A DNA stretch of 64,000 bases from Sphyrna mokarran (Eukaryota): contig JAGIQG010000013.1 of the NCBI GenBank assembly GCA_024679065.1, positions 42,656,001-42,720,000 of the forward strand, given 5' to 3'. A program made the position numbers and the translations under genes. The stretch's first letter is position 1, and each line of letters opens with the position of its first letter. This document shows, piece by piece, positions 8,280 to 61,665 of this stretch. Under the pieces are notes generated by a model. The model searched no databases, had not been told where the DNA came from, and saw only the letters and a program-made list of their open reading frames with translations.

Positions 8280-9643
8280 GGTAAGAAGTCTCACAACACT
8301 AGGTTAAAGTCCAACCAGTTTATTTGATAGTAAACCCACAAGCTTTCGGGATTTGCCCCTTCGTCAGGTGAGTGGAGAGTTCTGGTGTCAGATAGAGCAT
8401 ATAACAGCACACACAGTTTACAGAATACTGATTACAATGCGAGACTTTACAGCTAAAGTGCTATTCAAGTCTTAAAGATGCAGACAATGTGAATGGAGAG
8501 AGCATTAGGTATAGGTGTATTATCTCCAGATAGTACAATAAGTGACGTTTTACAAATCCAGGCAAGTCATAGGAGTTACAGATAGTGTGACATGAACCCA
8601 AGATCCTGGTTGAGGTCATCCTCATGTGTGCAGAACTTGGCTGTCAGTCTCTGCTCAGTGACTGCGCCTTTGTGTGTTGTGAAGGCTGCCTTGGAGAACA
8701 CTTACCCGAAGATCAGAGGCTGAATGCCCGTAACCGCTGAAGTGTTTGTCAACAGAAAGGGAACAGCCTTGCCTGGTGATTGTCGAGCAATGCTCATTCA
8801 TCAGTTGTCGTAACATCTGCATGGTCTCCCCAATGTACCATGCTTCAGGACATCATTTCCTACCATGCATTAGGTGGATAACGTTGGCAGAGTTGCAAGA
8901 ATTTGTTCCTTGTATCTGTTGAATGGTGTTCTCACATGAGACGATGTGTCATCCATGTCGATAATACGCATGTCTTGCAGAGATTGCAGTGGCAGGGTTG
9001 TGTGGTGTTGTGGTCACTACTCTCCTGAAGGCTGGGTAGTTTGCTGTGAACAATAGTCTGTTTGAGGTTGTGCAGTTGTTTGAAGGCAAGAAGTTCAAGT
9101 GTGGAGATGGCCCTAGCAAAATGTTCATCTTCATCAATGATATGTTGAAGACTCCAGAGAAGATGTCGTAGCTTTTGTCCTTTGTTCTTTGTTCTCTGCT
9201 CTGGGGAAATACTGGATGATGAAGGGTACTCTGTCCACCGTGTCCTGTGTTTGTCTTCTGAGGAGGTCAATGCAGTTTTTCGCTGTGGCGCATCTAAACT
9301 GTCAATTGATGAGTCAAGAGCCATATCCTGTTCTTATGAGGGCCGCTTTCAGCATCTGGGGGTGTCTGTCATGATCCTCTTCGTCTGAGCAGATCCTATG
9401 TATACGGAGGGCTTGTCCCTAGGAAATGGCTTCTTTAACATGTTTAGGGTAGAAGCTGGAGAAGTAGAGCATCGTGAGGTTATCTGTGAGCTTGCGGTAC
9501 AGTAAGGTGCTGAAGTGACCGTCCTTGATGGAGATGCGTGTGCCCAAGAATGCAACTGATTCCAGAGACTGGTGTTGTGAAACTTCTTACTGTGTTTACC
9601 CACTCCAACGCTGACATCTCCACATCCTGACTACCATTGACAG
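8280..9643 (-). mobile_element. Penelope-like element (PLE, Neptune type), 5' truncated, with a short inverted terminal piece at 9569-9643
   Basis: Minus-strand LLAFKQLHNLKQTIVHSKLP...PCHCNLCKTC linker and GIY-YIG remnant; flanks tgtatctac (8271-8279) and tatatctac (9644-9652) are a probable TSD; inserted in a LINE 3' end. Confidence 0.9.
8335..8372 (-). ncRNA. Minimal type-I hammerhead ribozyme motif
   Basis: Reverse complement: ctcac CTGACGA a gggg caaa tccc GAAA GC TT gtggg. Confidence 0.8.
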
Positions 9644-10319
9644 TATATCTACAGCTCAGGGACTGCAGCAGTTCAAAACGGCAGCTCATCACCACCTTCT
9701 GAAAGGCAACTAGGGATGGGCAATAAATGTTGCCTGGCCAGCGAAATCCACATCCCATAAATTAAATCAAATAAGTTCCTTCTTTGAAAAGCACCAACAT
9801 GTTTGCTGATAGTAACTTTATTTTTCACTGTAGGTTTATTGAATTAACTAAACTTAAATCACCTAGCGAGCATATAGGATTTGATCTGACTTCTCCAGAT
9901 TATTAACCCAGGCCTCTGGATGAATAGCACAGTAACATAACTACTACATTGCTGCAAAACATGTGATTGAAACTACTGAAACTTGAGAACTGTGGCATTC
10001 ATGTAATGCAGAGTTCAGTCCATTTATTCCTTCTGGCAGCATGTTTATTTTCAAAATTGTCAACTTTATTTAGTGCAGAGACAAGTTCCACTGGATCAAA
10101 TTGATGTGTGCATCTATTTCCTTTTGTTAAAAAATTCTGCAGGTGATCAGCACTGACTTTCTGCTTTGTTTTCAGGTAGGTGATGATGATGATGGGAGGA
10201 ATGTTATATTTGTTTGTCTCCAGGGTATTCCTCCAACTTTGATGATCTTGCACTTTTCCTCATCTGCCAATACTAGCTACTTTCTCAAACCACTCTCTGT
10301 CTCTACTTGATGGCACACT

Positions 10320-11810
10320 TTCTGCAATGTGAGCAAGGCTAGCAGGGTCAGCATTTGTTGCCAATCTCTAATGCCCTTGAGAAGGCAGCTGCGATCTGTC
10401 TCATTGAATCGATGCAGTCCATATGGTGTAGAACCCACAGTGCTGTTGAGAGGGAATTTGTGGTTCTTGACCCAGCAACAGTAAAGGAGCAGTATATTAT
10501 TCCAGGTCATAATAGTGCATGGCTTGCAAGAGGATTTGCAGGTGGTGGTGTTCCCATTTGTTTGTTGTCCTTCTAGGTAATAGAAGTTGATGATGGGAGT
10601 TCCAATAATAATATATCAATGAACTATCAAAGAGAGATAGTTAGATCCTCTCTTGTTGGAGATGATCATTGGCTGACTCTTGTGTGACACCTGTCACTTA
10701 TCAGCCCAAACCTGAATGTTGTCCTGTAGTTTCTGCCTGCAGACACAGACTGCTTCAGTGGGTGAGGAGTTGTGAATGGTGCTGAACATTGTGCAAACAT
10801 CATAAGCCTCTCCACTTCTGAACTTGTGGTGGAGTTAAGATTATTGATGAAACAGCAAAAAATGTTTCATCCTCGGACACTATCCTAAGGAACTTCTGCA
10901 GTGATATTCTGGGTAGCAATTACATGCCTTCAAAAACCACCACCATCTTTCTTTCTGATAGGCATGATGCTAACCAATGGGGAGTTTTTCCTAATTCTCA
11001 TTGAGTTTAACTTTGCTACAGGTCCTTGTTGCTACACTCTGTCAAATGCTGCCTCAATGTCAAGGGCCACCATTCTCCCCCTTGCTTTATGTCTGGAATC
11101 AGGTGGCCTGGCAAAACCCAAAATAAATATCAATGAACAAATTATGTTGTGTAAATGCTATTTAATAGGACTGTTGTCAACACATTCCCTCTCTTTGCTG
11201 CTGATTGACAGTAAATCGATGGAGTAATAATTGGCTGGCTTGGATTTGTCTTGTCTGAAGACAGGACCCTTACCTGGGCAATGGTCAACATTGTCAAGTA
11301 GCTGCACTGGGCAACCTGACTAGTTGGGGGTCCACAGGTTGGGAAGCTGGGTTGTCTGAAAAGAGTCCAAGTTCTGCAGCACAGGTTTTGTTGTCAGGAT
11401 CTATAACATTTGGCATATGCAATGCTTTCAGCCTTTTCTTGATATCATGTTAGAGGGAATGAATTGGCTGAAGGCTGGCATTTGTGATGCTGGAGACCTC
11501 AGGAGAAGGCTGAGATAAATTGTCCACTCAGTAATTCTGGCTGAAGATTGATTCAAATTCTTCAGTTTTGTCTTTTACACTGCTTTTCTGTAGCCTCCTC
11601 CTCCTGCTTGTTGTTTAATTGTGCACCATGACTTATGACTGGATGTGGCACGGCTGCAGAATTTAGATTCGATTTGTTTGCAGTTGGATGGTTTAATTCT
11701 CTCTATAACATACTGCTTCTGTTGTTTGGCACACAAATAGTTCTATGGCTTCACTAGGTTTACACCTGATTTTTAGGTACGTCTGGCGCTACATTTTCTC
11801 CTGCTCTCCT
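10320..11810 (-). mobile_element. CR1/L2-group LINE fragment, internally deleted
   Basis: Same reversed 3' tail and body as 5020-5820; ctgtcaaatgctgcctcaatgtcaagggc translates on the minus strand as ALDIEAAFDR (RT motif). Confidence 0.8.
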
Positions 11811-12729
11811 CATTGATCTCTTTCCTTCATGGTAATGACAATTGTCCACTCTATTCTTTTTCTGAAACTCTATCACAGCCATTTTGCAAGAAGTAGGAAG
11901 TGCTTTTTGAAAAGAGAGGCAATCTGACAATAATTAATCATTCGCACCTATATATAAATCACCACAACGAATACATGAATCTTAAATGTGTGCTCGTCAT
12001 TGTGTTTTTTGTGGATTTTAGTTCAAAATTAAAATCTGTCTTTAGATCATTTATTATTCATCCTTGGATTGTATTACTTTTTTTACGTGTTCACAGTTGT
12101 ATATAATTATAGGGACACAGTTGAGTTGGTGACCATGGATGAGTGCCCACAGGACTGCAGCTGATGGTGACAGTGTTGAATTGAGCATATAAGTCAATTT
12201 ACTTCTGCTCTAGCTGCTTCTCACCTTCGAGCTTGACCTATGAGATATCTAGTATTTATTTATAGTGTCTCGGCTGGGCATATTATTGATCTTATCAAAC
12301 CTATTGTAAGACAGGGTGAGAGTAGGAGGAAGGTTAAAATGAAATTTTAGTGTACACACTTTCATGTAACACCTTTTTTAGTTGAACTATAGTTATGAGT
12401 AAAGTTGAGAGTGTATTTAGTAAAATAATTTTTCTCTTAGAGGTTTTTATTGAAGATAAAGAGGATACTGTTGGGTGTTTTTGTTTAGGTTACCTTGGTA
12501 CGTACACTGATCTTTACAATGTTGTTGATTGAGTAGAAGTATTGGGTGCAATTTCATCTTGTTCATCTGATTTATGCCAAGGAATGTAACAGGACTAAAA
12601 TTGCACATTTAGCAGAATTGTTGTCTTTTTCCAGGGATTTTGATTTAAGTGCTCAGAGTGCCTGTCAAAAAGGGCCTACTGAATGGTTTAAGTCTGAGTT
12701 TAAAATAAAAAAAAACTTACACCAATGAA

Positions 12730-13140
12730 GCACCTTTCGCAAGTACAGATTATCTCAAAACAACCAATGAAATGCTTTTCAAACTGAAGTCACTGTTGCA
12801 ATGAAGAAATGCATTTGCACTCAGCAAATTCCCACAAACAGCTTTGTGACAATGACCGAATAACCTGCTTCGCTGAGTTGCTGATTGTGAGATAAGTATT
12901 GACCAGGAAAATGGGGTCATTCTCCAGTTCTTTATCAGAATAGTGCCACAGGATCTTTTACAGCAATCCAAACAGGCAGACTCGGCCATTTAGGAACATA
13001 GATGAATATCTCATCGGAATGATGGATGCTTCAACTGGAATGGTCCCTGGGTATTGAACTGGACTTGATCTTTGTGCTCAAAATCTGGAGTGGAAATTGA
13101 GTTAGAACCTTCAGACGTAACTGTTAACAAGTGAGCCATG
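12730..13140 (-). mobile_element. Old Deu-domain SINE (SacSINE1/AmnSINE1-like)
   Basis: gaatagtgccacaggatcttttac and cagcaaattcccacaaacagc resemble the Deu domain from memory; a reverse-oriented homologue lies at 31790-32540. Confidence 0.55.
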
Positions 13141-15639
13141 GCTGATGTTATTGTATTGGCTCCAAGTGCTGCTACCACTAATTCCTCATCCTGCCTCCAA
13201 CATGGGTGTACTAGTCATGAGGGACATTCCATTGAGTTTTTAAGTGGATGCAACAGCTGATCTTAGATCGAACACTGCAAAGTATTTGGAGACATTTAGT
13301 TTGTTCACATTTTGTGTTTCAACCAATCAAAATTTTCACTGTGAGTGCAGAATATTCTGATTGCTTCCGGGGATTCTGTCAAATGAGTTTTTCTTCAGGG
13401 AGATTCTTCTGTCATTTCCAATCAGAGAAAAAGGAGAAGCAGCAAAAGGAAAATTTTAAAACTGCAGAGAGGAATCCTTGTGATACTTTCTAAACAATGT
13501 GAATACACTTCGGACAACATGGGAGAGATTGGGCTTCCAAGATCTTGTATGATGGACAGGAGGGTTTGATGGAAGAGTTAGAAAGTAAGAGAGAGCTCCG
13601 ATATTCACAGGGAACTAGGAGTCTATACTCAATCGGCAATATGAATAGATAGCTGGGAGGCGGGGGTGGGGGTGGGGGGGTGGTCAATGCCAGGTGTCAA
13701 GTCTCTAACCCTGGATACAGTGTCATTAGATGTTTAATAATATTGCATCAATGGTTAACATCAGAGAATACTGTACCCTTTCCAAATACTGGCCTGCTCA
13801 CCTCAGACATAAATAACCACCTAATAACAATCAACACTCATATCTAACAGTGAAATATTTCATTTTTCACTTCTATGCTTACCATTGCAGCAAATCTCAT
13901 GCCACAGCTCAGAGTGTGCATGCATTTTCAAACTTGATAACCATATTAGTCAAAGAGGTTGGCTATCAATCATTTATATATTTCCCACCCTCCTGCAGGA
14001 TAGGGAAGTGCATACTTGAAGGCAACAGGAACCAAACAGAAAAAGGGACAAGAATTTCCTAACTTCCATGGAGAGATAATACTGGGATGGCTATTGTTAA
14101 GGTTGTGTTCAGTGATGGAACTGACACAATAGAAGGTGATAGTATCCTCAGATTTAATTCTCTTTCTCACACCTTTCTCCCTGTCCAGCCCACACTCCCT
14201 TCTGACTTAAAATCTACAGACGGTGTAGGCATGTAGTTCTTGTTTTCACCCAGTCCCCACCACTCATCCCTGTACTATCATTTTACATTTATGCTATTTT
14301 TCATCTTAGATGTCCTAGAGGTTTAAGCATTCCAGGAGCGGATGAACACCAAGATAGAATAATGGTGAGGATACAACATTCTCTCTGGATTTTACACTCA
14401 CAGCCACCAGCTCAGAAGACAGATTAGGGGCAGGACCTGCACTCAGTGTGAGACACTGGGCATGAGTAGGGTGCAGAAAAGACAGGGAAAGGTTAGGAGA
14501 GGTGCCAGATTGCCATAAAATATAGTTCCAAAAGACTCAGATAAGCATTTCAATGGGGCAATCTACAGAAGAGTGATAATGGGTATTCAAATTAAAATGC
14601 TGAGTGTAGAAGACTTGTCAGAAAGCCAATCTTCACTATCAAGGAGAACCAACTTGGCACAGTGATTCGCACAGAGTTTGGAAACCCTTCTTTCATCATC
14701 AAAGTGGTGGCAAACTCCATTGCAGTGTGTGATTGGTGAGGTCTCAGCTTCCGGTACAGCACAAATAACAGCCACCCAATGTTTAAGTGATGCAGATTGC
14801 TGTCATACAATCTCAGCTTGCTCCACTCTCAAATGTCCGTTATTGTGTCTGTGGATTACCATACACAGAGGGGCTATCAGGGAGTGCAATAATCCATTCT
14901 CCAACAGATAACTAGAATTGCTGAGGCTAAGTCCCATGGTAATGACAAGGAATGCAAATATGATGTCTGCCCTCTGGAAAACAGCATTCATGCTTTTACC
15001 ACTGCCAGTCTGTGATCTGTCATCCAGCCAGCCACTGTAGACAGCTGCTGCCATGCCAAGATGGTGCAGTCAAAAACCGGGCCTTCTAGCTGATTGAAGT
15101 AAAGACTATCTGTAATCTTCAGATTGAAGATCAGCAGTCTTCCATCAACTATGTTCCTGTCCTGAGATAGCAATGCCACGGAGCACTCGACCCAGGAAAG
15201 GCAAATGGAAGACAGGCATAAGGATGATTAATCGACTTTTGTATATAACATGGAATAATTTCGCACCAGTACTCCATTACATGTCACGTGCCAGTATTGC
15301 AAACCTATGCTCTTGAGCACAGATAGCACACTGGATCCAACAGCCACGTCATTAGCAGAGAGTTGTTATTATCTCTAGGCATCCTTTGGCATTGTGGCTG
15401 AAATGCTGCCAGCACAGTTGGCTGTCATACAATTAAGGCATCATGACTGCCAGAGCGTTATCAAGTATTAACCTGTATGATTCTCAGCTATGTAAACTTG
15501 GATATATACAGAGTGGAATCCATTTTATTTCTGATATAGAATGGAGGTGATGTCTAACCCCACACAAAGATGCGCATCCTGAACAAAGGAGATTCTAGAG
15601 ATACCACTTGCTTGTTTCTGGTAAGAGAGAATGAAACAT

Positions 15640-15700
15640 GAAAACAAAATACTGCAGATGCTGGAAATCTGAAATAAAAACAGAGTGCTTAAAATACTTT
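15640..15700 (-). mobile_element. Terminal fragment of the second Penelope-like family
   Basis: aaaatactgcagatgctggaaatctgaaataaaaacagagtgct matches 43935-43995. Confidence 0.55.
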
Positions 15701-15702
15701 GC

Positions 15703-15945
15703 AATTAAGTTATTGTGAAAATCCTCTAGTCACCACACTATGGCATCTGTTTGACTACCATAAGGAGGCATTTAGCATGCCCAGTCAAACGAACCAGCAT
15801 ATCTTTTGGACTGAGGGAAGAAATTGGACCACCCGGAGGAAACCTAGGCAGGCTTAAGGAGAACGTGCACACTCCATGCAGACAGTAACCCAAGCCAGGA
15901 ATCAAACCCAAAATCCTGGCGCTGTGAGGCCACCATGCCGCCAGC
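15703..15945 (-). mobile_element. tRNA-derived V-SINE-like SINE
   Basis: Core gtgcacactccatgcagacagtaacccaagccaggaatcaaacc (reversed B-box and V-like domain). Confidence 0.85.
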
Positions 15946-16579
15946 AACAACTAGAGAATAAAAAACAAAACAGCAAGTAATCAATAAGTGGTTGGTGATT
16001 GCTTTAAAAAGAACTGGTGGAAATGGGGAAGTGGAGGAGTGGTGTTTCCTGCTTCTACTTCATGTTCAGCTGTGCAAAGTTGAGAGAGAGCATGATTGGA
16101 ACATTGAACTCCTAAGTGGCACTGGTGGCATCAAATTAGCATTATTCCAGCTGATGTTGTGTTCACTGAAGTAATTTCTTGCATGATATAGAGTTCCACA
16201 TAATCCACCTCAGAAGTGCATGCATGTATTAGCAGCACCAATTTGAAGCTGAATGTAATTGTAACACCCACAGTTAGGCACTGTGGCCCAATATTGTCAC
16301 CTGGAATCTCTTCACTATTGATAAAGCACCAAAGGATCTACTGATCAACTGATTAATGATGTTGGTTGTAGAAACAATGTGATACTAACATTTTCGGACA
16401 AATTGAGCTTGATATTCCAATGTGTGAAGAAATTTTGCCAATGCTTTGTTCTATACTTTCAAGGAAAGCAACTGGCTTCATTCAAAATGCTTTTCTTTAT
16501 GGAGCATTATTTCTAATTACATTTATACAAATTCTGAAAAAAATAAAAGACTGCCGGGGAAATATTTTCAGCCTTTTTT

Positions 16580-18640: not shown

Positions 18641-18881
18641 TTCCAATATAAGGAATGGAGTTACTATTAAATTAAACATTGCACCAGATCTAATTTCAAA
18701 AGAGATAACAAAATTAAGAAATGCATATGAAAGTAAACAGTTTGCACCTGAAGTAATTTGTTTATGCCTGCGATTATTGGTAGCATGATGTAAAGATGCC
18801 AGCGTTGGATTGGGGTGGTAAGAACTCAGTAAGAATTTAGCAACACCAATTTTTAATCCAACCGATTTATTTGATAGTAAA

Positions 18882-18920
18882 TCCGTGAGCTTTCAACACT
18901 CTGTGTCTTCCTCAGGCAAA
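18882..18920 (-). ncRNA. Minimal hammerhead motif, one stem I pair lost
   Basis: Reverse complement: tttgc CTGAGGA a gacac aga gtgtt GAAA GC TC acgga. Confidence 0.7.
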
Positions 18921-19729
18921 TGCAGTGTTCTGGTCTACAATAGCACACATCAGCACAGACAGTCAGAGATTGCTGATTAGAATGCGAATCCTTACATTTA
19001 ACCTGCTAATCAAGTGTTAAAGTGGCTAACAATGTGTGTGAAGGGAATCCTGAGCATTGTTAGAGAATTGTGTATTTTCTCCAGACAGCACAGTAAGTGA
19101 GGTTTTTTGCTAACCCAGGCAAGTTACGGGGTTACAGATAGTGTGTCATGAAGCCAAGATCCCTGTTAAGACCGTCCTCATGTGTGCGGAGCTTGGCTAT
19201 CAGTCTCTGTTCAGCGATTCTGCGCTGTCGTGTATCACAAAAGCCCCCTTGAAGAACATTTACCCGCAGGTTGGAGGCCGAATGCCCATGACTGCTGAAG
19301 TGTTCGCCCACAGGAAGGGAACTGTTTTGCCTGGGGATTGTTGAGCGATGCTCATTCATCCGCTGTCGTAGTGTCTGCATGGTCTCCCCAATATACCATG
19401 CTTTGGGACATCCTTTCTTGCAACGTATTAGGTAGACAACGTTGGCCGAGTTGCAAGAGTATGTACCGTATGGACGGTCTTAACAGGGATCTTGGCTTCA
19501 TGACACATTATCTGTAACCCCCGTAACTTGCCTGGGTTAGCAAAAAACCTCACTTACTGTGCTGTCTGGAGAAAACACACAATTCTCCAACAATGCTCAG
19601 GATTCCCTTCATACACATTGTTCGCCACTTTAACACTTCAATAGCAGGTTAAATGTAAGGATTCGCATTCTAATCAGCAATCTCTGACTGTCTGTGCTGA
19701 TGTGTGCTATTGCAGACCAGAACACTGCA

Positions 19730-19768
19730 TTTGCCTGAGGAAGACACAGAGTGTTGAAAGCTCGCGGA
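19730..19768 (+). ncRNA. Minimal type-I hammerhead ribozyme motif
   Basis: tttgc CTGAGGA a gacac aga gtgtt GAAA GC TC gcgga; predicted cleavage after CUC at 19763. Confidence 0.82.
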
Positions 19769-20509
19769 TTTACTATCAAATAAATCAGTTGGATTAAAAA
19801 TTGGTGTTGCTAAATTCTTACTGAATTATTGGTAGCAACCAGTTTTACAGACTCAGATACCCTATCAAGAAGGGATCAAAAGATACAGGCTCTGGGGTAA
19901 CTGCTGCACAGACTCCATTGTAGCCCAGACATTTTGGTGAAATAAGTCACCCATTGTAAGGAAACATTGGGGGGCAATTTTACCATTTTGATACTAAGTG
20001 CGGAATCTGCATGCAATTCAGATCCGACTTGGAAACCTGTTCTCAGGAGCCCCCATACACATTTAGCCTGAAAAGAAATCACATGCTGAATTGTGCTGTG
20101 GGCAGGGCTTCTTATACTGTGATCATCAGAGCCTACAATTGCACATACACATTAAAAAAAAATTGAAAAGCGCTCTCCTGCAACATTCTACCTGGGCCAG
20201 TTTATACCTCTCCCTGGCCCACACAGACATTGCCCCATCCCTACAACATTACAGACCCATTTATCTATCCTACACAAGGTCTCTATCTCCTCTAGACTCT
20301 GATAGCTGAGTAACATCTCCCTCTCTCTCCTCTGTCCCCACCCTCTCCAGCAACACACCTGCTGGTGCTCACTTGCCTTCCCCTCCATGCTAACAAGCAA
20401 ACTGCAGGGAACTTGCTGGAATGCTCTGCCAAATTGCCTGCAGCTGGTCTGCCCTAACGAGAGGCAGCTTCATCAAGAATAGCTAGGCAGGCAGGCATTC
20501 CTGTGCAAA

Positions 20510-21799: not shown

Positions 21800-22225
21800 T
21801 GGTGAATGTTCTCCAAGGCGGCCTTCATGACATACGAGAGCGCAAAGTTGCTGAGGCTGATAGCCAAGTTTTGCACACATGATGAAAGTCTCAACCGGGA
21901 TCTTGGGTTCATGTTACACTATCTGTAACCTCCATGACTTGCCTGAACTTGCACCTTCTCACTTCCTGTCCTGACTGAAGACAATCACATCTCTTTAACC
22001 TATGTTTAATGCTGTGTCCACTCACATTGTCTGCACCTTTAAGACTTGATTAGCTGTAAAGACTCACATTCTAATCAGTATTCTGTAAACTGTGTGTGCC
22101 TTTAAATGCTCTGTTTCTGATCAGAACTTTCCATTCACCTGACGAAGGAACAGCGTTCCGAAAGCTTGTGGGTTTACTACCAAATAAACTTGGACTTTAA
22201 CCTGGCGTTGTGAGACTTCTTACTG
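21800..22225 (+). mobile_element. Penelope-like 3' fragment (pseudo-LTR)
   Basis: Encodes ...SLNRDLGFMLHYL* and ends gtgagacttcttact like the other copies. Confidence 0.9.
22134..22172 (+). ncRNA. Minimal type-I hammerhead ribozyme motif (best-formed copy)
   Basis: ttcac CTGACGA a ggaac agc gttcc GAAA GC TT gtggg; perfect 5 bp stem II. Confidence 0.85.
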
Positions 22226-27700: not shown

Positions 27701-28418
27701 GTTCTTATTTTCATAAGATCCTGTTTACTGATCACTAGTTTTTCCCAACTAGGGGATTTCCCAGCCACATCCAAGAATTCCATAGTTGCAAGCAAGATCT
27801 GCAATCTATTCATCAGTTGGAAGATATGTGATATTATTTTCCAATTGACTTCATTTGCACCAGCCACCAATATTCATATAGGAAGACAGCTGAATTCATT
27901 CCATCATTCACCTGTCTGACAGCACCTTATCATTAAAAAATATCTCTGGATAAAGTAGATTTTCACCAATTGAAGATTGTCTGCTTAACTTTGTGTAAGT
28001 ACAAAAGGAACGAAGGCTGCAGATGAGAACTGAGATAGGCTGTCCAAGATCTTTTCTACTCAATAATGAAAGTGGAGAACTGTTTCTATGGGATTAGGTT
28101 AATTCATTACAAAAGAATTTTATTGGGAAACGAAACAGGAAAACAAAGTGATCAATATGAATTCCCAGCAAGCAGTGAATGGAGTGTCAGATAAGAGAAT
28201 ACCATTCACAATGGTGAATGCTAGTTTGAAGGTAGCAACTTGAGTAGTTGCACTAAACTCTCGACTTGATAGGTGCCCAAATCATTAAAGTCAACATTCA
28301 TTCCTCCCACCACCAATATGCTGTGTTTGCAGTGTGAACTATCTGTGGGATGCAGTGCAATCACAATAAGAAATCTGACAACACCAGGTTAAGTCCAGCC
28401 GATTTATTTGATAGTAAA

Positions 28419-28456
28419 CTCACAAGCTTTCGGGGTTTGTCCCTTCGTCAGGTGAA
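28419..28456 (-). ncRNA. Minimal hammerhead ribozyme motif
   Basis: Reverse complement: ttcac CTGACGA a ggg acaaac ccc GAAA GC TT gtgag. Confidence 0.78.
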
Positions 28457-30827
28457 TGGAAAGTTCTATCCTCAGACAGAGCGTATAACAGCACAGATAG
28501 TTTACAGATTACTGATTAGAATGTTACTCTTTACCAAAATGGATCCCATCAGTCCCACAGCAGACACAGAGGAATTCATCAGGCGAATAAGGCTGTGTGA
28601 GTTCTTCCACAAACCCCAAGAGGCCAAAAGCAAGCACAATGAGACAGCCAATGAACCAGAACAGCCAACAGAGAGATCCACAGTGAGCAACTGAAGAGGA
28701 AGGAATCCAATTTGACTCCTCTGGAAGGCCACTGCCCTTGACTGGACATGTATGCCCAAACCATCAGGAGGTGCGTTAACACCAGATTCGTCAGCTGCAC
28801 TCACAAGACAGCCCCGAACATCACCCAAGCACAATGCAACGCCATTCACGCTCTCAAGACCAATCACAACTTTGTCATCAAACCAGCAGACAAAGGAGGG
28901 GCCATCGTTATACTGAATAGAATGGATTACTGCAAAGAAGTGTATTGACAACTAAACAATGAAGAACTCTACAGACAGTTACCCCAGATCCAACCAAAGA
29001 TCACACTCGTCAACTCAGCACTCTGATCAAGACCTCTGATCTGGACCTTCAGAGCACCTCTCTGCTCTCGTTCCACGTACTCCCAACGTTGGAGATCTCT
29101 ACTGCTTCCCAAAGATACAATGGGACAGCTGGATGTGTTTCCCTTGTGTATCGGACAACGTGACCCTATATGACAACCTCTCCGGCTATGTCGACAGCAT
29201 CCTGAAATCCATTGCACAAGGAACTCCCCAGCTTTTGTTGACACCAAGGACTTCCTATGGAAACTCAGCACACATGGAGCAATTGAACCAGGGACACTTC
29301 TCATCACAATGAATGTCTTGGTGCTCTACACCAACATCCCCATGACAATAGCATTGCTGCAACTGTTTCAGTACTCAACGCCGACAGCTGCTAATTTCCA
29401 AATGCAACTTTACAACTCATCTGCTTTATCCTGGACCACAATGTTTTCACCTTCAACAACCAGTTTTTCATCCAAACACACAGAACAGCTATGGGGACCA
29501 AATTCGCACATCAATATGCCAACACCTTCTTGCACAATTTCAAACAAGACATCTTCACCGCACAGGACCTTCAACTGATGCTATATACTAGATACATCGA
29601 TGACATTTTCTTCCTTTGGATTCATGAATCCAATCACTGAAACAACTATATGACAATATCAACAAGTTCCTTCCCACCATCAGAGTCACCATGGACTATT
29701 CTCCAGAATCAGTTGCATTCTTGGACGCATGCATCTCCGTCAAGGACGGTCACATCATCAGCACCTCACTGTACCACAAGCCCACAGACAACCTCACAAT
29801 GCTCCACTTCTCCAGCTTCCATCCTAAACACGTTAAAGAAGCCATCCCTTAGGGACAAACACTCCGTATACACAGCATCTGCTCAGATGAGGAGGATTGT
29901 GACACCTCCAGACGCTGAAAGATGCCCTCATAGATCAACAGTTCTGATGTGCCACAGCGAGAAACCGCACCAACCTCCTCAGAAGACAAACGTGGGACAT
30001 AGACAGAGTACCCTTCATCATCCAGTACTTCCTTGGAGCAGAGAAGCCAAGACTCCATCTTCTCTGGAGTCTTCAATGTATCATTGATGAAAACGAACAT
30101 CTCGCCAGGGCCATCCCCACGTACCTACTTGCTTTCAGACAACCGCACAACCTCAAACAGACTATTGTTCGCAGCAAACTACCCAGCTTTCAGGAGAACA
30201 GTGACCACAACATCACACAACCCTGCCACAGCAACCTCTGCAAGACATGCTGGATCATTGACATAGATGACATCATCACATGTGAGAATAGCATCCACCA
30301 GGTACACAGTACATACCCTTGCAACTTGATCAACATTATCTACCTAATGTGCTGCAGGAAAGGATGTCCCGAAGCATGGTACACTGGGAGGACCATGCCG
30401 ACACTATGACAATGGATGAATGAACATTGCTTGACAATCACCAGGCAAGACTGCTCCCTTCCTGTTGGCGAACACTTCAGCGGGCACAGGCATTCGGCCC
30501 CTGACCTTTGGGTAAGCATTCTCCAAGGGTGCCTTCACGACACACGACAGTGCAGAGACTGATAGCAAAGTTCCGCACACATGAGGACAGTCTCAACAGG
30601 GATTTTGGGTTCATGTCGCACTATCTGTAACCCGCATGACTTGCCTTGGTTTGCTAAACCGCACTTACTGTACTGTCTGAAGACAATACACATCTCTTTA
30701 ACCTGTGCTTAATGCTCTTTCCACTCACATTGTCGGCCTCTTTAAGTTTTGAATAACAGGTTAGTTGTAAAGACTCCCGTTTTAATCAGTAATCTGTAAA
30801 CTGTCTGTCCGAGGCCAGAACTCTTCA

Positions 30828-30864
30828 CTCACCTGATGAAGGGAGAAACCCCAAAAACTTGAGT
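30828..30864 (+). ncRNA. Degenerate hammerhead motif (GAAA changed to AAAA, probably inactive)
   Basis: ctcac CTGATGA a ggg agaaac ccc AAAA ACTT gag, at the position homologous to the other copies. Confidence 0.55.
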
Positions 30865-30985
30865 TTACTATCAAATAAATTGGTTGGACTTAACCTGGTG
30901 TTGTCAGATTTCTTACTGTGTTTATCCCAGGCAAACGCTGGTATCTCCACATCATGCAGTGCATCAGCATGGCTACTTAGACAGT

Positions 30986-42020: not shown

Positions 42021-42024
42021 ATGT

Positions 42025-50156: not shown

Positions 50157-51699
50157 TTTCAAGATACAAAATCCTACTAATTCAAATCTCTGAATTCTTG
50201 ATTTTTAACACAAAGTTCCTTAGTGTTAAAATTAAAACTTGCCTAATGGACTATGCATAACTAGTTTTCTAAATCAAGAAGAATTTATTAAACAAGTTTT
50301 TACAGTGAAGTAAATATGTAACCTTATTCCTCAGGTTCCTAGATTTCTTGAACATCGCCAGCACAAGTAATGTATTTCTCTTCTTCTGTCTTTGCAGAAA
50401 TATTGAACTGTCTCTTAAAAGAGTCATAGCAGGGAAGCCATGGTGACACTGTGCCAACAAATATTCCAGTTTTCTGATATCTCACTATTCAGAATTCCTT
50501 ATTTGCAAACAGTCTGAATTCCAGTCTTCCACTGGCTTAGGGTGAAGATCATCTGATGTAGCCACACCTCTGTAAATAATTACGTAGGCTAAAAACAAAT
50601 GTCTATCTCTTTTCCCTGGTCCAGAATTCACACTTCATTGTGAGCAACTGGTATATTTCCTTTAGATACAAAGCAGTTGCAAACAAAGTCAAATTTTAAC
50701 CCAGGTCCCTTAGAAACTAAAACTATTAAGTATATATGTTAAAATACCTCCCAGCAAGTCAAAACAAAATGAAAAATTTACCTCTAATACAGATATTCTT
50801 CCCTCCAAATATAGTAAATCAATGCAACAATTCTGTTTCAGATAGTGTCAGCGTCATCTTAAGTTCATGCTACTTTTTAGCCTTTTTTTTCATAGCTTTA
50901 AAAAGACTCTTGCCCACTGTACAATTAAGACAAGATACAACTGCTGTCAAGCAGCTTAAAATGAGAAAACTATTAAGCATAGTTTCTCACAAATAACAGC
51001 TGTTGTCCTGCAAAATATCTCCAACTACCTTGACTGCCCATTGTCTCACCAAAGAAATTCAGATGAAACTTTTGAAAGTGGTTACAAATAAAATGCATGG
51101 ATGTTACATCAGACCAACAATGAACCCCAAAAAATTGTAGTATTATCAGAATCTTGCATGGCTGTGTCAACTAGAAAGCCTACTATTTCCTGCTCTATAT
51201 CTGAAGGAAATACACCAGTTGCTCACGATAAAGTGTGAACTCTAGACTAGGGAAAAGGGATGGGCATTTGTCTTTAGCCTACATAATTATTTACAGAGGT
51301 GTGGTGACATCAGATGACCTGCACCCTAAGCCAGGGGAAGAGTGGAATTTAGACTATTTGCAAATAAGGAATTCTGAATAGTGAGAAATCAGAAAACTGA
51401 AATATTTGTTGGCACAGTGTTACCATGGCTTCCCTGCTATGATTCTTTTAAGAGACAGTTCAATACTTCTGCAAAAACAGAAGAGAAATACATTACTTAT
51501 GCTGGCAATGTTCAAGAAATCCTAGGAACCTAAGCAATAAGGTTTCATGTTTTCTTCACTGTAAAATCTTGCTTAGTAAATTCTTCTTGATTTAGAAAAC
51601 TAGTTATACATAGCCTATTAGATCAGGCACCACTAAGAGCCCTTGTGTTAGAAATCAAGAATTCAGAGATTTAAATTAGAAGGATTTTATATCTTGAAA
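50157..51699. repeat. Long inverted duplication: arms 50157-50676 and 51190-51699, spacer 513 bp
   Basis: Arms align end to end as reverse complements, roughly 85-90% identical by eye. Confidence 0.95.
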
Positions 51700-53297: not shown

Positions 53298-54074
53298 TGA
53301 TATCCAAGTCATTAATGACAAGTTTAAGGTCATGCAAGTCAATGCCTATTTCCCAGGCTACAGTTATGATGCCCCCTTTTTAAAGCAATCCTGACATTGC
53401 TCATTTGAAGAACAATGAACTTGGAAACTAAAGCTACTTTTTTAAATCCCAGCACATGATATTATTAAGACAGTTGTGAACAATAACTAAAAAGATATCA
53501 TGACCCATTCAGCCACCAAGATTATTTATGATATACATGGGTCTCTTGAAGCAAGGCTTCAGATATTTGTACAGATTAGGGACATTTTACAATAAATATC
53601 TGCTGAGTGCTCCATAACCTTGCTAATGTCTACAGTCTATTTGCAATTCCTGTTGCCTCACCAAAGCAGCCAGCATAATTAAGGACCCCATGCACTCGAA
53701 CATCCTCTTTTCTACCTTCTTCCATCGGGAAAAAGAAACAAAAGTCTGAGGTCATGTACCAGCAGACTCAAGAATAGCTTGATATAAGACATCTTCTGCA
53801 ACATAGTCCAGAGTGCTAAATCCTCTGCAATAGTAGAAGGTTCACTTTCACCATCTCAAGAGCAACTGGACTTGGACAAAAAGTGCTGGCATTTCCAGCA
53901 TGGAAACTGCATAGATATTTTGGAAAGGTAAAGAAAGTTCAGGGTGATGTACAACTATTTAACTGGTTTTCTGGTTGTTGTTATTTGAGTGAAAGGACAT
54001 GCATCACGCAAGTAGATCCTGATAAAGAAAATGAATACAACTGTAATTACGAGAAATGTAAAATAAAGTTCTAG

Positions 54075-54400
54075 GTTTTCATAGCATAGAAAGAGGCCCT
54101 TCAGCCCATTGAGTCTGCACCGAACACAATCCCATCCAGGCCCCACCCCCATATCCCTATATTTTTTTACCCACTAATCCTTCTAACCTACACATCCCTG
54201 GACACTAAGGGACAATTTCTTAGCATGGCCAATCAACCTAACCCTGGACATCTTGGACTGTGGGAGGAAACCAGAGTACCTGGAGGAAACCCACGCAGAC
54301 ACGAGGAGAATGTGTAAACTCCACACAGATAGTGACCTGAGCCAGGAAACGAACCCAGGACCCTGGAGCTGTGAAGCAGCAATGCGAACCATGCCACCTA
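54075..54400 (-). mobile_element. Full-length HE1-like V-SINE
   Basis: Reverse complement of the 16580-16915 type over its whole length. Confidence 0.9.
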
Positions 54401-55099
54401 AATGGGCCCAGGTTTTCCTGCTTTGTCTTCTAAGTTTTCAATGGACATAGGGCAGATGAGTGTGGAAATGGGCTTTGATCCGTCCTCACCTTTGCCATTT
54501 TCTACAAAGAAAGATCAAGAATTTGGCAAACAAATCATAGCTTAGGAACTATGACCTTCACAGTGGTTCCCATCATTCGCTGTGTTTGAAAGCTGGATAC
54601 ATTGGCTGCCATCTCAAGCTCAAATCTTATTGGAAGGTCCTCAAGATTCATTGGAGAGAAATAAATACCACCATTCTCAGGTCTTACCTAAGCATAGATC
54701 CTGAAGGTAGTAAGTAATTTTAATGATTTTGATTTTCTCGAAGAGCTTCCTTTCTTTCTTTCTTACTTGCTATGACATCCCCTACAACTGGGGATTAATA
54801 TTTCTGCCCTGTTTCAGCACAACTGCCTGGAGGAGACTAGTAAAACTGCCTTTAGTATGGTTGGAGTTACAGGATTGGGAACCATTGCCATGATAACAAG
54901 GAGGCTTGCCTCTTTCAACATGTTCCCAGTCACAAGACAAAACAATGCCTACATGGGAATTTTTTTTTTCCCTATTGCAGGTGTTGACGTAAATGTAGAA
55001 TGAGTTCTGCTCGTGCTGGTAACTGATGATACTGAACCCAAGAGGATGCTGAGAGTACATCCATGAAATACCTGGACTCCAAAAGGTAAATTACAAGAG

Positions 55100-55495
55100 A
55101 AATAACAGAAACTATAGGTAAATTCCTGGTATTTCCAAGATTGTGTATGATCTAGCTGAAGACTTCAAGATATTAGGGGGGAATAGATGAGTAGATATGG
55201 AGAAATTTTCCACTGGTTAGAGAGTCTAAGACTATGAGACATGCTCTACAATTCAAAGCCAGGCCTTTCAGCTATGAATTTAGGAAGTGTTTCTACACGT
55301 CAAAGAAATGGGAGAAGTTTGGAACTCTCTGCCAGAAATTGCAACCGATGCTAGGTCAATTGTCACTTAAAGATCTAAAATTGGTACATCTTTGTTAACC
55401 AAAGGCATTAAGGAATATGAAATTAGGTCACTGGTCAACCTTGAATGGCAGCAGACCAAGCTTGAGGGAACAAGTGGCATCCTCCTGTTCTTATA
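55100..55495 (+). mobile_element. CR1 LINE 3' end, decayed
   Basis: taggaagtgtttctacacg...gtttggaactctctgcc...cctcctgttcttat. Confidence 0.7.
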
Positions 55496-55723
55496 TGCCA
55501 GCTTAAGATTAAATGAACTATATCACCTTTTAATACTCTGATTTGTAAAGCTATACTTGAGCACAAGAACTTAAAAATATTTTTACCATTTGGTGTGAAT
55601 TGTAATTTTCATATTTGAAGCATTTTAAAGGACTATATTTGTATTTCACTCATTCACAAAGTGTGGGCATCACTGGCTATGCCAATATTTATTGTCCATC
55701 TCAAGGGAAGTTTGGAATGAACC

Positions 55724-56065
55724 AGGCAGCATGGCAGAACAATGGTTAGCACTGCTGCCTCAGCGCCAAGGATCCAGATTCGATTCTCAGCTTGGGTCAC
55801 TATCTGTATGGAGTTTGCACATTCTCCTTGTGTCTGTGTGGGTTTCTTCCAGGTGTGCTGGTTTCCGCCCACAGTCCAAAAATATATGGATTAGGTTAGA
55901 TGTAGGTTAAATGTACAGGCTTGGCCATGCTAAATGGCCCTTCAGTGTCAGGAGGACTAGTTAGGGTAAATGCATGGGATTGTGGGATTGAACCTGGGTG
56001 GGATTGTGATTGGTGCAAACACGTTGGGCCGAATGGCCTCCTTCTGCTCTGTAGGATTCTATGAT
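55724..56065 (+). mobile_element. Full-length HE1-like V-SINE
   Basis: ggcagcatggcagaacaatggttagcactgc, core, tail ggcctccttctgctctgtaggattctatg. Confidence 0.9.
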
Positions 56066-57929
56066 TAGTACTGGTCTTGTCAGCGATGCCCACATTCCAT
56101 GCACAAATGAGAAGAAAACACCAGCAAGCTGCTTCTCAGACAGGTTGTACCAATTAAATAACGGTGGATTTATGGACAAACGTTTTTGTTATCAATCAAC
56201 CTCTGTCACAATATTGAATGCATGAAAATCTTTGATCTGTAATTCTTCTAATTTATTTTTTCTTATTTCCCAATTGAGTCCCCATCTAAACAATCTCATC
56301 CTTAAGACCTATTCTCTATCTTCGTGATCCTTATGGGCAGAAATTTGGTGATATCATTTTACCAATCACCTTTCTGAAGCTGCCCAACTCTTACCAGATA
56401 TGGGGTTGGGACTTCCCTGCTAGTTTTGCCCCGAAACAGGAAAATTCGGCCTGAGGTCAGCAGTCCTTCCCATAGTCCACCCTTTGCCTGCTGCAGTTCC
56501 TATGACAGTTGGAATGGGAAGATTTGTTCCACCGTGTGCAAAATCTCATCAAAAAATTGTGGAGTCTTGTTTCCAATGAGAAAACCAGAGTGTTTCTCTC
56601 CAGTGAATCAGGTCAGTTATTTCTCCAAGTTTACAACACTCTGCCAAAAACATCAAGGCGGTGTGTTTCCACGCCAAGGTTTGGGCATGGGGGTGAGGGA
56701 TGCAATGCCTCAACACTCTGGCAGAAACCAGCTGCATTGAGATTGGGGTGCCATGCTTAAAGGGCACCCTGATCGAAGCAGCAATAAACTCGCTCACCAT
56801 GGAGTTGTTGGGGGCTCTCTTTCTAACCCCCAAACACCCCACCTATTTTAGCCAGCATGCACTCCAACCACTGCCCCCAACCCATGATCATCAGCCCCTT
56901 CCCCCTTCCCGCACAGTTAGAGCTGGCATCTACCACTCCCCTGCCAAGCAGCTTTCACTGCCATCTCCTGCTCCCCTGTTTGCTCCAACCCACCACAACA
57001 TACAAATGAATTCCTCCCCTTCTCCATGAGTCTCCCACCAGGGTGCGTTCCACTATAATCCCTGGTACACATCACTGCCAAGGTGACATGGACATGGTAT
57101 CAACCTGGCAATGCCAACTTGTGTGAAGTGGAGGTGGTAGGGAGCATTGTCAGGCCACAGTCTAACCATGTCCCTTTATCCTGGACTATACTCATCTTTA
57201 ATGAGTGTTCCCTATGACAGGTTCACATCTGGGTGAACCCCGTATAAACCCTTTGAAAACACAGAGGAGGGTTACTATCTGGCAAGAGGGCATATTAATA
57301 ACATATTTAACTGAATGTAAATCAGGTTCATGTTATGGGCATGAACCTGATGATGTCCTCGGCAATGGGGAAGGGAAGATCTGAAATCGCGATTGTCCTG
57401 GCAAGATCTACAACTTCTGCTTTTGAGCCCCTGCCAGCTTTCTCATGGAGGGTGAGAATGGGCTCAAGGTCATCTCCCTTGTATCAAGAATCATCTTGGA
57501 TTTATTGTAGGCTCACCAGTGTCCAACTACAAAATTGAAGCAAGGTCAAAATCTAAGCAAGGTCACTGCTGTAACAGCTAAGAGAAGGCTGGGCAGTTAA
57601 AACCGGAAGTGTAGTCATCACGCTGTGCTCAATGCCTTTCTTACCTGCTTGGGCAGAATCTGATGCTTGGAAAACAACTGAAGTAAAGGCTCGACTGGCG
57701 GTTGCAATAGTTCCCTATTCTTTTCAGAAGAGCTTCAGTACAGCTGTCATCATTTCCTCAGCTTCGACTGAGTGACCGTGGAAAGCATAGTAACCTATGC
57801 TAAGGAGAGTTTCACAATTTTCGGTTACTCTTCGGCCCGGAATTTTTGCCATGAAGGAGAGTCATAGAAGAGAATGGGTTGGGGAGGGGGGGAGGTGCAG
57901 GGAAGTGTTGTGCAGGAAGAGACAATAAT

Positions 57930-58689
57930 CTGCAAGAGACAGGAAGGACAATAATCTTCCCCATTACTGTCAAAGCAATGTCATGACAATGGAGCAAATC
58001 ACCAAGAAGTACTATGTGAAAATTTACTAATAAACTTTTTATATTTTAGTCATTAACTTGCCTCAATCGTGTTTCATTGTTATCTTACTGTTTAAGATGA
58101 TCATGATCAAGAGCAGCAAGGAACACGGAGAATGAACATATAGAAGATACTCATCAGTTTAGGTTCAAAGGTGTAATTCAAAACTGAATTCTAAAGGGAA
58201 AGGATTCAAATTCCTGAAGGAAAGAGTTATCCATGCTATTGTGTCAGATCATCATGCATGCTCTGCCTGCAGTTATTCTGTTGAGGATTTTGTTACCAAG
58301 CAACAAAGTCCTGCGAAAGCAAATTTTGCAAAGCAATTTGACCATGGAATTGTTAATTATTAGGTAGCCTGTGAAGAATGTCAAGCAAATAATAAAAAGC
58401 ATTTACTTGAAGATGGGGTGGGGTAAGAACATTTCTTCTTAAATCTATTGTTCTACTGCAAAGCAATGTTCCTGACAATTTAACCCTTTTTGTGATAGAA
58501 TCTGCCAGACACTTCAACAACTTTCCTTAAGATCAATGGAAACATTTCCTACATTTCTAGTTTGATCTTTTTTCTTAACAGTCTTTAAGCAAACTAATTT
58601 AATGTAGCATTTCTTGGCGATTTACTGCATTGTCATAATACTGCATTGACAGTAATGGGGAAGATTATTGTCCTTCCTCCCTCTTGCAG
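57930..58689. repeat. Short inverted duplication: arms 57930-58014 and 58605-58689
   Basis: 33 bp perfect core, 57941-57973 versus 58646-58678, within ~85 bp arms. Confidence 0.9.
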
Positions 58690-58864
58690 TCTAAGGATTC
58701 ACCTTCCCTTAATTTCAATGAATCTGTCATCCTCCTCTTCATTTTTTTTAAAATTCCATCTAGTTAAGGTTTAACATTTGGATTTTAAAGATGCAAAAGA
58801 AGTATACAAAACACAAAGTTTTGTACAGCATTTAACTCATCATCAGTTTGTGGTTCTTCAGAGA

Positions 58865-58956
58865 ATAAGAAGTGTCACAACATCAGGTTAAAATCCAACA
58901 GGTTCATTCGATAGCAAAAGCCACTAGCTTTCGGAGTGCTGCTCCTTCGTCAGGTA
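58865..58956 (-). mobile_element. Isolated ~90 bp Penelope pseudo-LTR end
   Basis: taagaagtgtcacaacatcaggttaaaatccaacagg matches the termini at 8281, 28366 and 60338. Confidence 0.85.
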
Positions 58957-58957
58957 A
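58921..58957 (-). ncRNA. Minimal hammerhead ribozyme motif
   Basis: Reverse complement: ttac CTGACGA a ggag cagca ctcc GAAA GC TA gtgg; CUA cleavage triplet. Confidence 0.78.
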
Positions 58958-60385
58958 ACTGCTGTTCCTCAGAGATCCATAGAACATTATAAAATATCCC
59001 TTGAATAATTTTTCAAAAAACAACACAGTATAGAAATTAGCTTCAAGTAAAGCACAAGCCATCGAAATGTACCCTGCATTTGAAAATAAGGTAGGTGACT
59101 TTTCTTTGCAAGTTCAGAGTTTGTATCCCTTCATCAGAATGCAGGAGAAATGTTTGCTGTCCTCAAGTCATCACAGAGTAAATTCAGGATCTCAGCTGGG
59201 CTGTCATGGTGTGTCGTGAAGTGAAGACAAAATATTTTCCCACACCTAGGAGATAGTAAAGAACAGATGGTAAGGTGAATTGGATTGGTGTTACAACATT
59301 GACCTATATTCTCCTTGGAGTGGATCCTAGGAAGTTGGAAGTGCAGAAGTAACCATATAGCACAAATCAAAATAGTAGATGACATTGACTTCAAATCTAA
59401 TGATAGGTTTGTGTTAATGAAGTATTTAGTGAGATTAGTCCTTTAGGTAATGTGTGCTGTGTAGTATTGCTTCATTCTGTCAGAGAAAAATTGATGGATT
59501 TTCTGCTGGAACTTGGCTGATTATTTCCTTCAGGTGCAGAATGTTCCAGATGATTATAGCCTTGTGTATTGATAGTCCAGATAAACAATTACTGGCTTTC
59601 TGAGCGTAATTGTTTGTGACAGAGGGTGACCAAATGAAATCTCCTCATGTTGCTTTGTGATGCTCAGTGTTTGTACATGTAACTAAATCCTTGAAAAGCC
59701 CCTTGATAGATCATATTAAAATTATAAAGCTGGCAGAGGGTAGTCAGAGCCTAGTGCCCACACCAAACTGACCCCTTTCAGTTAAATGTTTCACCAGAAT
59801 TATCTTACTTGTTGGAATCAGAACCATTTATATTAACCAAATGGATCAGTTAGAAGACAGGGCTAGAAACTTTCAAAACTGGTATGGTTGGAAAATGACA
59901 CTGCAGCACATTGTAACCAACAATCTCTCAGACACTTTCCTCTCTCAGACTCCCCTCAAGCACATCTTTCCACTCAGACCCTCCTCAGCAAACTCCCACC
60001 TCAGACTCCCTTCTGCCTGTGCCCTCCCCACCCCACTCATCTCCCTAGTGAAGCCATGTGCTTTGGCAGTGCCAACAAGTCACTACCCGCCCCCCCAGCA
60101 CACTGGCACTGACACATAGGCACAGAATATTGGGCTCTGAAGGGGATCAAGGAGATGGAGACAGTAGCCATTTGCCCTTATGCCACTGCAAGGATGCAGA
60201 AGAAGGGTTTTGCAAAGCCCCTGAGTGTTGGGTGGGTTTGGGTTGGGGGAACAGGGTTGATCTTGCCACTCTCCCCTAGGATGTGGGTGTTATATCTGGC
60301 CTGGATCTGAAGATCATCTCTGGCATGGTGCTCTCACTAAGAATTTTCATAACAGAAGGTTGAAGTCCAACAGGTTTATTTGGGG

Positions 60386-60422
60386 GCACAAGCTTTCAGA
60401 GCACTGCCCGTCACCAGGTGAG
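60386..60422 (-). ncRNA. Hammerhead motif with mutated core (CTGGTGA)
   Basis: Reverse complement: ctcac CTGGTGA c gggc agt gctct GAAA GC TT gtgc. Confidence 0.55.
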
Positions 60423-61627
60423 TGGGAGTTCTGTTCACAAACAGGGCATATGTAGATACAAACTCAATTCATGGACATAACACACGCCCATCAAGGACGG
60501 TGACCTCAGCACTTCACTGTACTGCAAGCCCACAGATAACTTTACAATGCCCCACTTCTCCAGCTTCTACCCTAAACATGTTAAAGAAGCCATCCCCTAG
60601 GGATAAGCTTTCCATATACATATGATCCTCCTCATTGGAGCAGATCCTAACAGACACATCCAGATGTTGAAAGATGCCCTCATAAGAACAAGATATGATG
60701 CTCGACTCATCGATCTGCATTTCTGACGTGCCACAGTGAAAAACCACAACAACTTCATCAGAAGACAAATACGAGACACAATGGACAGAGTGCCCTTCGT
60801 TGTCCAGTACTTCCTTGGAACAGCGAAGCTATGACATCTTCTACAGAACCTTCAACATGTCATTGATGAAGCCGAGCACCTCATCGAGGCAATCCCCACA
60901 CCTTTGCTTCTTTTCTTCAAACAAATGCATAACCTCAAACAGACCGTTGTCTGCAGCAAACAACTCAGCCTTCAGGAGGATAGTGACCATGACACCACAC
61001 AATCTTGCCACAGCAAACTCTGCAAGACATATCAGATCATTGACACAGATGCCATCATTTCACCTGAGAACACCATCCAGCAGGTAAACAGTACATATTC
61101 TTGCAACTTGGCTAATGTTGTCTACCTGATACGTTCCAGAAAAGGATGTCCAGAGGCATGATACATTGGGGAGACCATGCAGACGCTATGACAACAGATA
61201 AATGAACGCCACTCGACAATCATTAGGCAAGAGTGTTCTCTTCCTGTTTGGGAATACTTCAGCAGTCATGGGCATTCTCCTCTGATCTTCAGGTAAGAGT
61301 TCTCCAAGGCGACCTTCACAACACATGCCAATGCAGAATTGCTGAGCAAAAACTGATAGCCAAGTTCCACATACATGAGGATGGCCTCAACCAGGATCTT
61401 GGGTTCATGATACACTATCTGTAACCCCCACGACTTGCCTGGGCTTGCAAAATCTCACTAGCTATCCTGGCTGCAGACAATACACATCTCTTTAACATGT
61501 GCTTAACGCTCTTGCCATTCATATTGTCTGTACCTTTAAGACTTAATTATCTGTAAAGACTCACATTCCAACCATTATCTTGTAAATTGAGTTTGTATAT
61601 ATGCCCTGTTTATGAACAGAACTCCCA

Positions 61628-61665
61628 TTCACCTGATGACAAGGCACTGCTCCGAAAGCTTGTGC
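61628..61665 (+). ncRNA. Minimal hammerhead motif, weak stem II
   Basis: ttcac CTGATGA caaggcactgctcc GAAA GC TT gtgc. Confidence 0.62.

Follow-up and report, generated by a model that had tools for sequence, protein, structure and literature searches.

We analyzed a 64,000-nt window of the Sphyrna mokarran genome (assembly GCA_024679065.1, contig JAGIQG010000013.1, positions 42,656,001–42,720,000 of the forward strand) and confirmed that it contains nine minimal type I hammerhead motifs, which are predicted self-cutters, in the pseudo-long terminal repeat (pLTR) of a Penelope-like element (PLE). These motifs probably function only in the RNA of the element itself, and the genomic copies are then by-products without a host role. 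The value of the analysis lies in population data, which indicate (i) that the ribozyme was under selection only while lineages were transposing; (ii) copied templates that were not cut; and (iii) likely two templates per insertion. These data bear on two questions: what PLE hammerheads do, and how head-to-head insertions arise.

All nine motifs reported in the first-pass annotation are present at their positions and on their strands, with one start shifted by 1 base (58920, not 58921). Six are intact (8335, 18882, 19730, 22134, 28419, and 58920) and three are broken. The annotation had listed only the motifs at 30828 and 60386 as broken; these two are broken, and the motif at 61628 has to be added, which lacks the 10.1–11.1 pair of stem II (position labels follow hammerhead numbering, such as N7, G12, A13, 10.1–11.1, and H17). 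The motifs and the insertions that carry them are as follows, where RT is reverse transcriptase and EN is endonuclease.

8281–9568, minus strand: old-subfamily PLE arm, 5′-truncated, with the RT end, linker, GIY-YIG, and 3′ pLTR; stops and frameshifts
8335–8372, minus strand: minimal hammerhead, intact, triplet CUU, predicted cut between 8340 and 8339
9567–9629, plus strand: short inverted arm of the same insertion as 8281–9568, post-ribozyme end and tail only
18773–18785, no strand: 13-nt target-site duplication (TSD), left copy (right copy 19825–19837)
18784–19469, minus strand: young-subfamily PLE arm, tail ending at ATG; GIY-YIG frame 19135–19479 free of stops
18882–18920, minus strand: minimal hammerhead, CUC, with a C-A mismatch at the first stem I pair
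19472–19830, plus strand: inverted arm without tail, same insertion as 18784–19469, 96.6% identity to its twin
19730–19768, plus strand: minimal hammerhead, intact, CUC, predicted cut after 19763
21801–22225, plus strand: PLE 3′ end, 5′-truncated (EN C-terminus and pLTR)
22134–22172, plus strand: minimal hammerhead, intact, CUU, predicted cut after 22167
28359–28534, minus strand: short inverted pLTR arm without tail
28419–28456, minus strand: minimal hammerhead, intact, CUU
28533–30956, plus strand: decayed 5′-truncated PLE arm of 2.4 kb, with RT, linker, EN, pLTR, and tail ending at ATG
30828–30863, plus strand: broken hammerhead, G12 and 15.2 altered, 2 nt lost after the triplet
58866–58958, minus strand: isolated short piece of pLTR that includes an intact hammerhead (58920–58958), CUA
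60331–60470, minus strand: short inverted arm with a broken hammerhead (60386–60424; A6 altered)
60480–61750, plus strand: decayed PLE arm with tail, 1.3 kb; hammerhead 61628–61666 with intact core and disrupted stem II

A 10-nt direct repeat lies at the outer ends of the arm pair 28359–28534/28533–30956, and the fragment carrying the 58920 motif is the same repeat as the other pLTR copies. The core-motif pattern used for both window and genome counts, CTGANGAN{8,24}GAAAGCTH, has 7 matches in the window compared with 0.01 expected, and none of 100 shuffled sequences reaches 7. The catalytic core CUGANGA ... GAAA ... UH is kept in 7 of the 9 copies, and the palindrome AGCU (15.2–16.2, with no helix III or loop 3) in 8. 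The stem pairings quoted in the annotation are found in the window copies: in the nine-copy alignment, 87% of the stem cells are paired and 5 of the 9 pairs are altered on both sides, and slid controls of the same alignment all fall below this value, with at most 61% paired; the shuffle controls for stem pairing, here and for the larger sample below, disregard the relatedness of copies. The nine motifs are not independent. The pairs 18882/19730, 28419/30828, and 60386/61628 are the arms of head-to-head insertions; therefore, the nine motifs represent six insertions.

The annotation placed the motifs in Penelope pLTRs, and this placement is borne out by the decayed RT and EN frames found upstream, with the motifs in sense to the open reading frame (ORF). 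The carrier is an EN-containing (EN+) PLE, likely of the Neptune type, judging from the linker and CCHH motifs of its predicted protein. The stop-free 115-residue frame at 19135–19479 matches GIY-YIG (PF01541, E 1.4e-5, above the Pfam cut-off). A genomic relative holds RVT_1 (E 1.3e-9) and GIY-YIG within one 817-residue frame, with a CX4CXXC linker and an endonuclease CCHH motif in which two Cys precede YIG and two His follow it. A linker of this kind marks Neptune and Nematis and is absent from Penelope/Poseidon, and the Neptune clade combines a CX2-5CxxC linker with CCHH in the endonuclease (PMC8557442). In vertebrates, only Neptune and Poseidon PLEs have been reported. Many genomic copies have open frames of ~906 residues, and the protein counted from its Met would comprise about 893. 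The hammerhead lies in sense in the pLTR, ~190 nt after the ORF stop. In tandem copies, which have a unit of ~3.03 kb, the hammerhead-bearing pLTR is followed by AATAAA, the tail, and the ATG; the predicted cut falls just upstream of AATAAA and 100 nt ahead of the next ATG. Other EN+ PLE features are also present, namely pLTRs from partial tandems, an inverted arm, two 3′-end zones, and a TSD. Ahead of the tail, a stretch resembling a branch point plus acceptor (e.g., in L133 and at 61700–61750 of the window) and an upstream donor-like GTAAGG mark a candidate pLTR intron. In several young copies, this candidate has no AG, and no GT-AG joint is seen in RNA contigs, which come from runs with at most 0.42 of the words. 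At one locus (L031:5115–5260), an inverted pLTR arm is fused directly to an internal ORF position, which is likely the result of a template jump.

The exact pattern has 49,789 matches in the 2.77-Gb genome, compared with 4 for the reversed control pattern. Motif-spanning copies, with or without an intact core, were also counted: 100 arbitrary 10-kb stretches hold 59, which extrapolates to roughly 160,000, and the core is intact in about one third of randomly sampled copies (19/59 and, in a second sample, 21/56). The density of the window (9 in 64 kb) is ~2.4 times the genome average. When 50 copies were clustered by flank sequence into 4–5 clusters, all 13 columns of the core and AGCU were invariant over the clusters, compared with 84–85 of the 126 flank columns (Fisher P 0.007–0.008), and 1–2 of the 11 columns of stem/loop II were invariant. 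Covariation was assessed on 69 located copies (3 further copies were unlocated and 3 rows were misparsed). The pair 10.3/11.3 occurs as AU (30 copies), CG (13), GC (11), and GU (10), and pairs 10.2–10.4 and 2.2 lie above all 2,000 shuffles, with relatedness outside the shuffle model. Stem I shows one two-sided change, at 2.2/1.2. The palindrome pair 15.2–16.2 is GC in 58 of these copies, and the extra base between A9 and 10.1 is A in 65 of them and in 159 of 161 young copies. G10.1 is fixed, and the 10.1–11.1 pair is GC in 36 of the 69 copies and GU in 25, partly through CpG decay. Thus, the proposal that selection kept the fold across subfamilies stands, on the invariant core columns and the covariation of stem II.

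The sample of the young family comprises 161 of the 163 young copies, which are mostly top search matches and include twin arms. At N7, the bases are G (74), C (38), T (38), and A (11), a diversity of 0.68 between nearly fixed neighbours; diversity is 0.67 at 1.3 and 0.62 at 1.4, and stem/loop II has 41 variants. For the four-fold sites of the ORF, mean diversity is 0.027, with 4 of 87 sites polymorphic. The rule that the cleavage triplet never ends in G, stated in the annotation for the window copies, holds genome-wide: G occupies position 17 in 712 matches (1.4%), compared with the 49,789 matches with H17, and a decay variant, A13 to G, occurs 367 times. The G17 count is near the level of this decay variant; therefore, U, C, and A are used at position 17 and G is excluded. 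A G17 sub-lineage, hinted at by one cluster of 5 copies, was rejected on the same count. In the common TTT allele (L140:1167–1172 and related young copies), the sequence that follows the cut complements the GAAAGC preceding it, and this could give a self-paired, inactive form.

Once inserted, the hammerheads decay neutrally, with the core changing at the flank rate. The twin-arm test retained 63 head-to-head pairs, 52 young and 11 older, with CpG sites handled separately. Over the 11 core positions, the arms of the young pairs show 11 differences compared with 12.1 expected from flank rates, and those of the older pairs show 16 compared with 18.7. A few domesticated copies could hide within such a bulk test. 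The data support selection that acted on the lineages while they were transposing, and not on the inserted copies.

The inserted copies read through the predicted cut site, so the template that was copied was mostly uncut. Of 163 3′ ends, 159 lie downstream of the predicted cut and none at it, and most fall in two zones, +57 to +73 (71 ends) and +97 to +112 (75 ends) relative to the cut. Among the 71 copies that reach the N-terminus of the ORF, 37 continue through the cut and 1 begins exactly there. The 5′ ends of the randomly sampled copies show no significant cleavage footprint, with 9 of 55 at −3 to +8 of the cut compared with 5.6 expected (P 0.11). This pattern fits an in vitro PLE system in which unprocessed RNA is the main template and cleavage needs protein (PMC11167929). 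Two further features of 5′ ends were seen: 13 of the 55 lie at −40 to −31 of the cut, a count partly inflated by local alignment, and in mini head-to-head insertions (L081, L101, L236, and L239, and the first rows of the genome count) the arms start at the front edge of the ribozyme.

Each arm or tandem unit quite probably had its own template, either a separate RNA molecule or a separate unit within a multimeric RNA, as the allele patterns of the copies suggest. At least one common non-CpG segregating allele distinguishes the two arms in 39 of 45 head-to-head insertions (L001–L201), and such arms usually lie within a single TSD; the window pair 18784–19830 itself differs at two common-allele sites. 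In total, arms differ at 98 of 1,301 segregating sites (87 to a common allele) compared with 255 of 25,559 monomorphic sites, and random pairs would differ at ~398 of the segregating sites. Over three age bins, discordance at segregating sites is 6.5, 6.6, and 8.8%, while differences rise from 0.13 to 1.9% at monomorphic sites and from 1.9 to 9.1% at CpG sites. Discordance that stays flat with age while the other differences rise indicates that it dates from insertion. Post-insertion hypermutation or gene conversion is disfavoured as its cause, since discordance does not scale with age, and so are assembly polishing errors, since older pairs keep private changes. Tandem elements show the same pattern: between their 5′ and 3′ pLTRs, differences occur at 25 of 192 segregating sites compared with 22 of 2,632 monomorphic sites, and 7 of the 10 comparable elements (20 were fetched) are discordant. 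Differences at common alleles, in arms and in tandem pLTRs alike, argue against the copying of a single circle and against self-priming. In addition, 95 of 210 site pairs fail the four-gamete test. A direct repeat of at least 8 nt flanks 38 of 44 pairs (at least 11 nt in 36), and the TSDs are mostly 12–13 nt. The same 12-nt TSD was seen at L006 and L147, which are on different contigs.

We propose the following sequence of events for the element's RNA. The hammerhead would cut itself slowly and is predicted to depend on a partner RNA or on the protein of the element; the literature describes low activity for dimers or in the presence of protein. Read-through RNA of several units would be trimmed by cleavage to unit length and then be translated or turned over; such a unit RNA would begin 100 nt before the ATG and would have no downstream AATAAA. 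Fungal and plant systems offer examples in which self-cleavage drives cap-independent translation (PMC13725137). The RNAs left uncut would serve as templates for reverse transcription, in which both nicked target strands may be extended, starting from the zones at +57 to +73 and +97 to +112, and the two strands may be extended on two different RNA molecules or units.

None of the window motifs folds as a monomer better than its own shuffles (z −1.75 to +0.9). Several points weigh against the proposed role in the element's RNA. Cofolding predicts the active AGCU-swapped dimer for 0 of 4 motifs. In the young family, the 10.1–11.1 pair is more often GU (88/161) than GC (70/161); stem I has 2 bp in the least diverged young alleles (TTT and TAT), and the pair 2.3–1.3 is unpaired in 66 of 161 copies; these look like features of a weaker ribozyme. 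The invariance test across subfamilies drops to P 0.046 with two clusters, and within the young family alone the invariance of the core does not clearly exceed the flank background, where 22 of 257 upstream columns are polymorphic. The 5′ ends of random copies near the cut make some cut templates conceivable, and the role in translation or turnover is purely inferential.

The motif might instead serve chiefly to hold two element RNAs together by means of the AGCU palindrome and the hammerhead dimer fold; a dimeric RT-endonuclease would then be loaded with two templates, and cleavage would be secondary. We regard this as unlikely. It would agree with the different common alleles held by the arms of most insertions, with the invariance of AGCU across subfamilies, and with the weak stems of the youngest lineages; the anole PLE protein is a predicted dimer that extends both strands, and in vitro, RNA with a dead ribozyme is still inserted (PMC11167929). 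By contrast, the conservation of the catalytic bases and of the rule at position 17 points to chemistry, a protein dimer alone could unite two RNAs, the 4-bp palindrome is not favoured by cofolding, and Naiad PLEs make inverted insertions without canonical hammerheads (PMC8557442). A more specific version is similarly doubtful: each insertion would be built from two RNAs of a recombining pool, paired by the loopless hammerhead in the manner of a retroviral dimer-initiation signal, and the free positions of the ribozyme would diversify faster than synonymous sites.

Less probable still is double cleavage followed by ligation into a monomeric circle, around which reverse transcription continues past one full turn, as modelled in PMC4209133. 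A re-ligated circle would likewise read through the cut, and it would account for the tandem copies and for the tails on long arms (the tail-bearing arm is the longer one in 27 of 43 pairs). However, one circle gives identical pLTRs, which the discordant tandem elements do not have, and linkage shows no drop at the cut site, with no recombination hotspot in the linkage table. Template jumps between different circles are conceivable.

The annotation further suggested that intronic copies could cleave host transcripts. That dispersed copies cleave or regulate such transcripts and are retained for that purpose is highly improbable, even with about 50,000 core-intact copies in the genome and several same-strand copies lying kilobases apart in the window. 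Inserted copies lose the core as fast as their flanks change, and no host exon was found in the window, where Pfam matched none of the 145 non-repeat ORFs tested (of 455 candidates); cleavage of host transcripts is therefore without support, as is an intronic position of the copies. The two motifs of a head-to-head pair are on opposite strands, so one transcript has only one of them in sense, and published monomers are inactive (PMC4209133) or dependent on the element's protein (PMC11167929). A chance match or an unselected passenger has scarcely any probability: the folding z-scores are not significant and an Rfam scan returned no hammerhead even at E 10 among 6 weak matches, but compensated stem II, a free N7 between fixed neighbours, and the exclusion of G17 already contradict it. 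Elsewhere in the window, a 520-nt inverted repeat with 87% identity (50157–51699) has no match to the PLE, and a fragment at 175–546 on the minus strand resembles a LINE-type endonuclease (Exo_endo_phos_2, E 0.008, below the cut-off).

The preferred reading, in which the hammerhead acts in the element's own RNA, concerns a motif class that is known and common. Minimal hammerheads (min-HHRs) were described in 2014 by Cervera and De la Peña in the pLTRs of metazoan PLEs, including Xena, Poseidon, and Neptune of fish (PMC4209133), and the function of PLE hammerheads has been called unclear (PMC8557442). The shark motifs resemble the min-HHRs in being type I, with no helix III or its loop, a palindromic 15.2–16.2, and one base between 9 and 10.1. 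They also resemble them in genomic setting: they lie in pLTRs, mostly in truncated copies, with opposite-strand pairs at close range, and vary highly within the genome, a variability remarked on in PMC4209133 that the diversity of the young copies quantifies. Similar motifs may already be present in the supplementary alignments of that paper. The differences are as follows: (i) the copy number is far higher, with 49,789 exact-pattern matches compared with ~4,000 in coelacanth and ~9,000 in Xenopus, which were obtained with a different descriptor; (ii) stem II has 3–5 bp, compared with 7–8 bp in Schistosoma; (iii) most young-family copies have G10.1-U11.1, compared with a conserved G10.1-C11.1; and (iv) the tandem pLTRs are discordant, unlike in the single-circle model (comparison values and model from PMC4209133).

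Type I hammerheads linked to PLEs also occur in animal non-LTR retrozymes, with one chondrichthyan among 35 genomes (bioRxiv 10.64898/2026.07.22.740005). Those are non-coding tandem repeat units bounded by hammerheads, whereas the shark motifs sit in scattered or inverted pieces of a coding element and form no tandem arrays, so we rejected a retrozyme identity. The anole Poseidon element PAc (Frangieh et al. 2024, PMC11167929) has, like the shark element, two 3′-end zones that bound a tail of 30–40 nt, and its inserted copies read through the ribozyme. It differs in that its cut is 26 nt downstream of the ATG, compared with a predicted cut 100 nt upstream in the shark, whose linker is of the Neptune type and whose tail, ending at the ATG, is on one arm only in 42 of 44 twin insertions.

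We found no published work on two-template PLE insertions or shark PLE hammerheads, within an incomplete coverage of the literature, and the passages of PMC3846280 and PMC8557442 contain no statement of two templates. The shark insertions are otherwise like the head-to-head PLE insertions described there (Arkhipova et al. 2013, PMC3846280; Craig et al. 2021, PMC8557442), with an inverted 5′-truncated arm, one TSD, and a tail at one end. The 2013 study favours self-priming on an antisense template. Such self-priming would be expected to give identical arms, whereas the arms of the shark insertions differ at common alleles.

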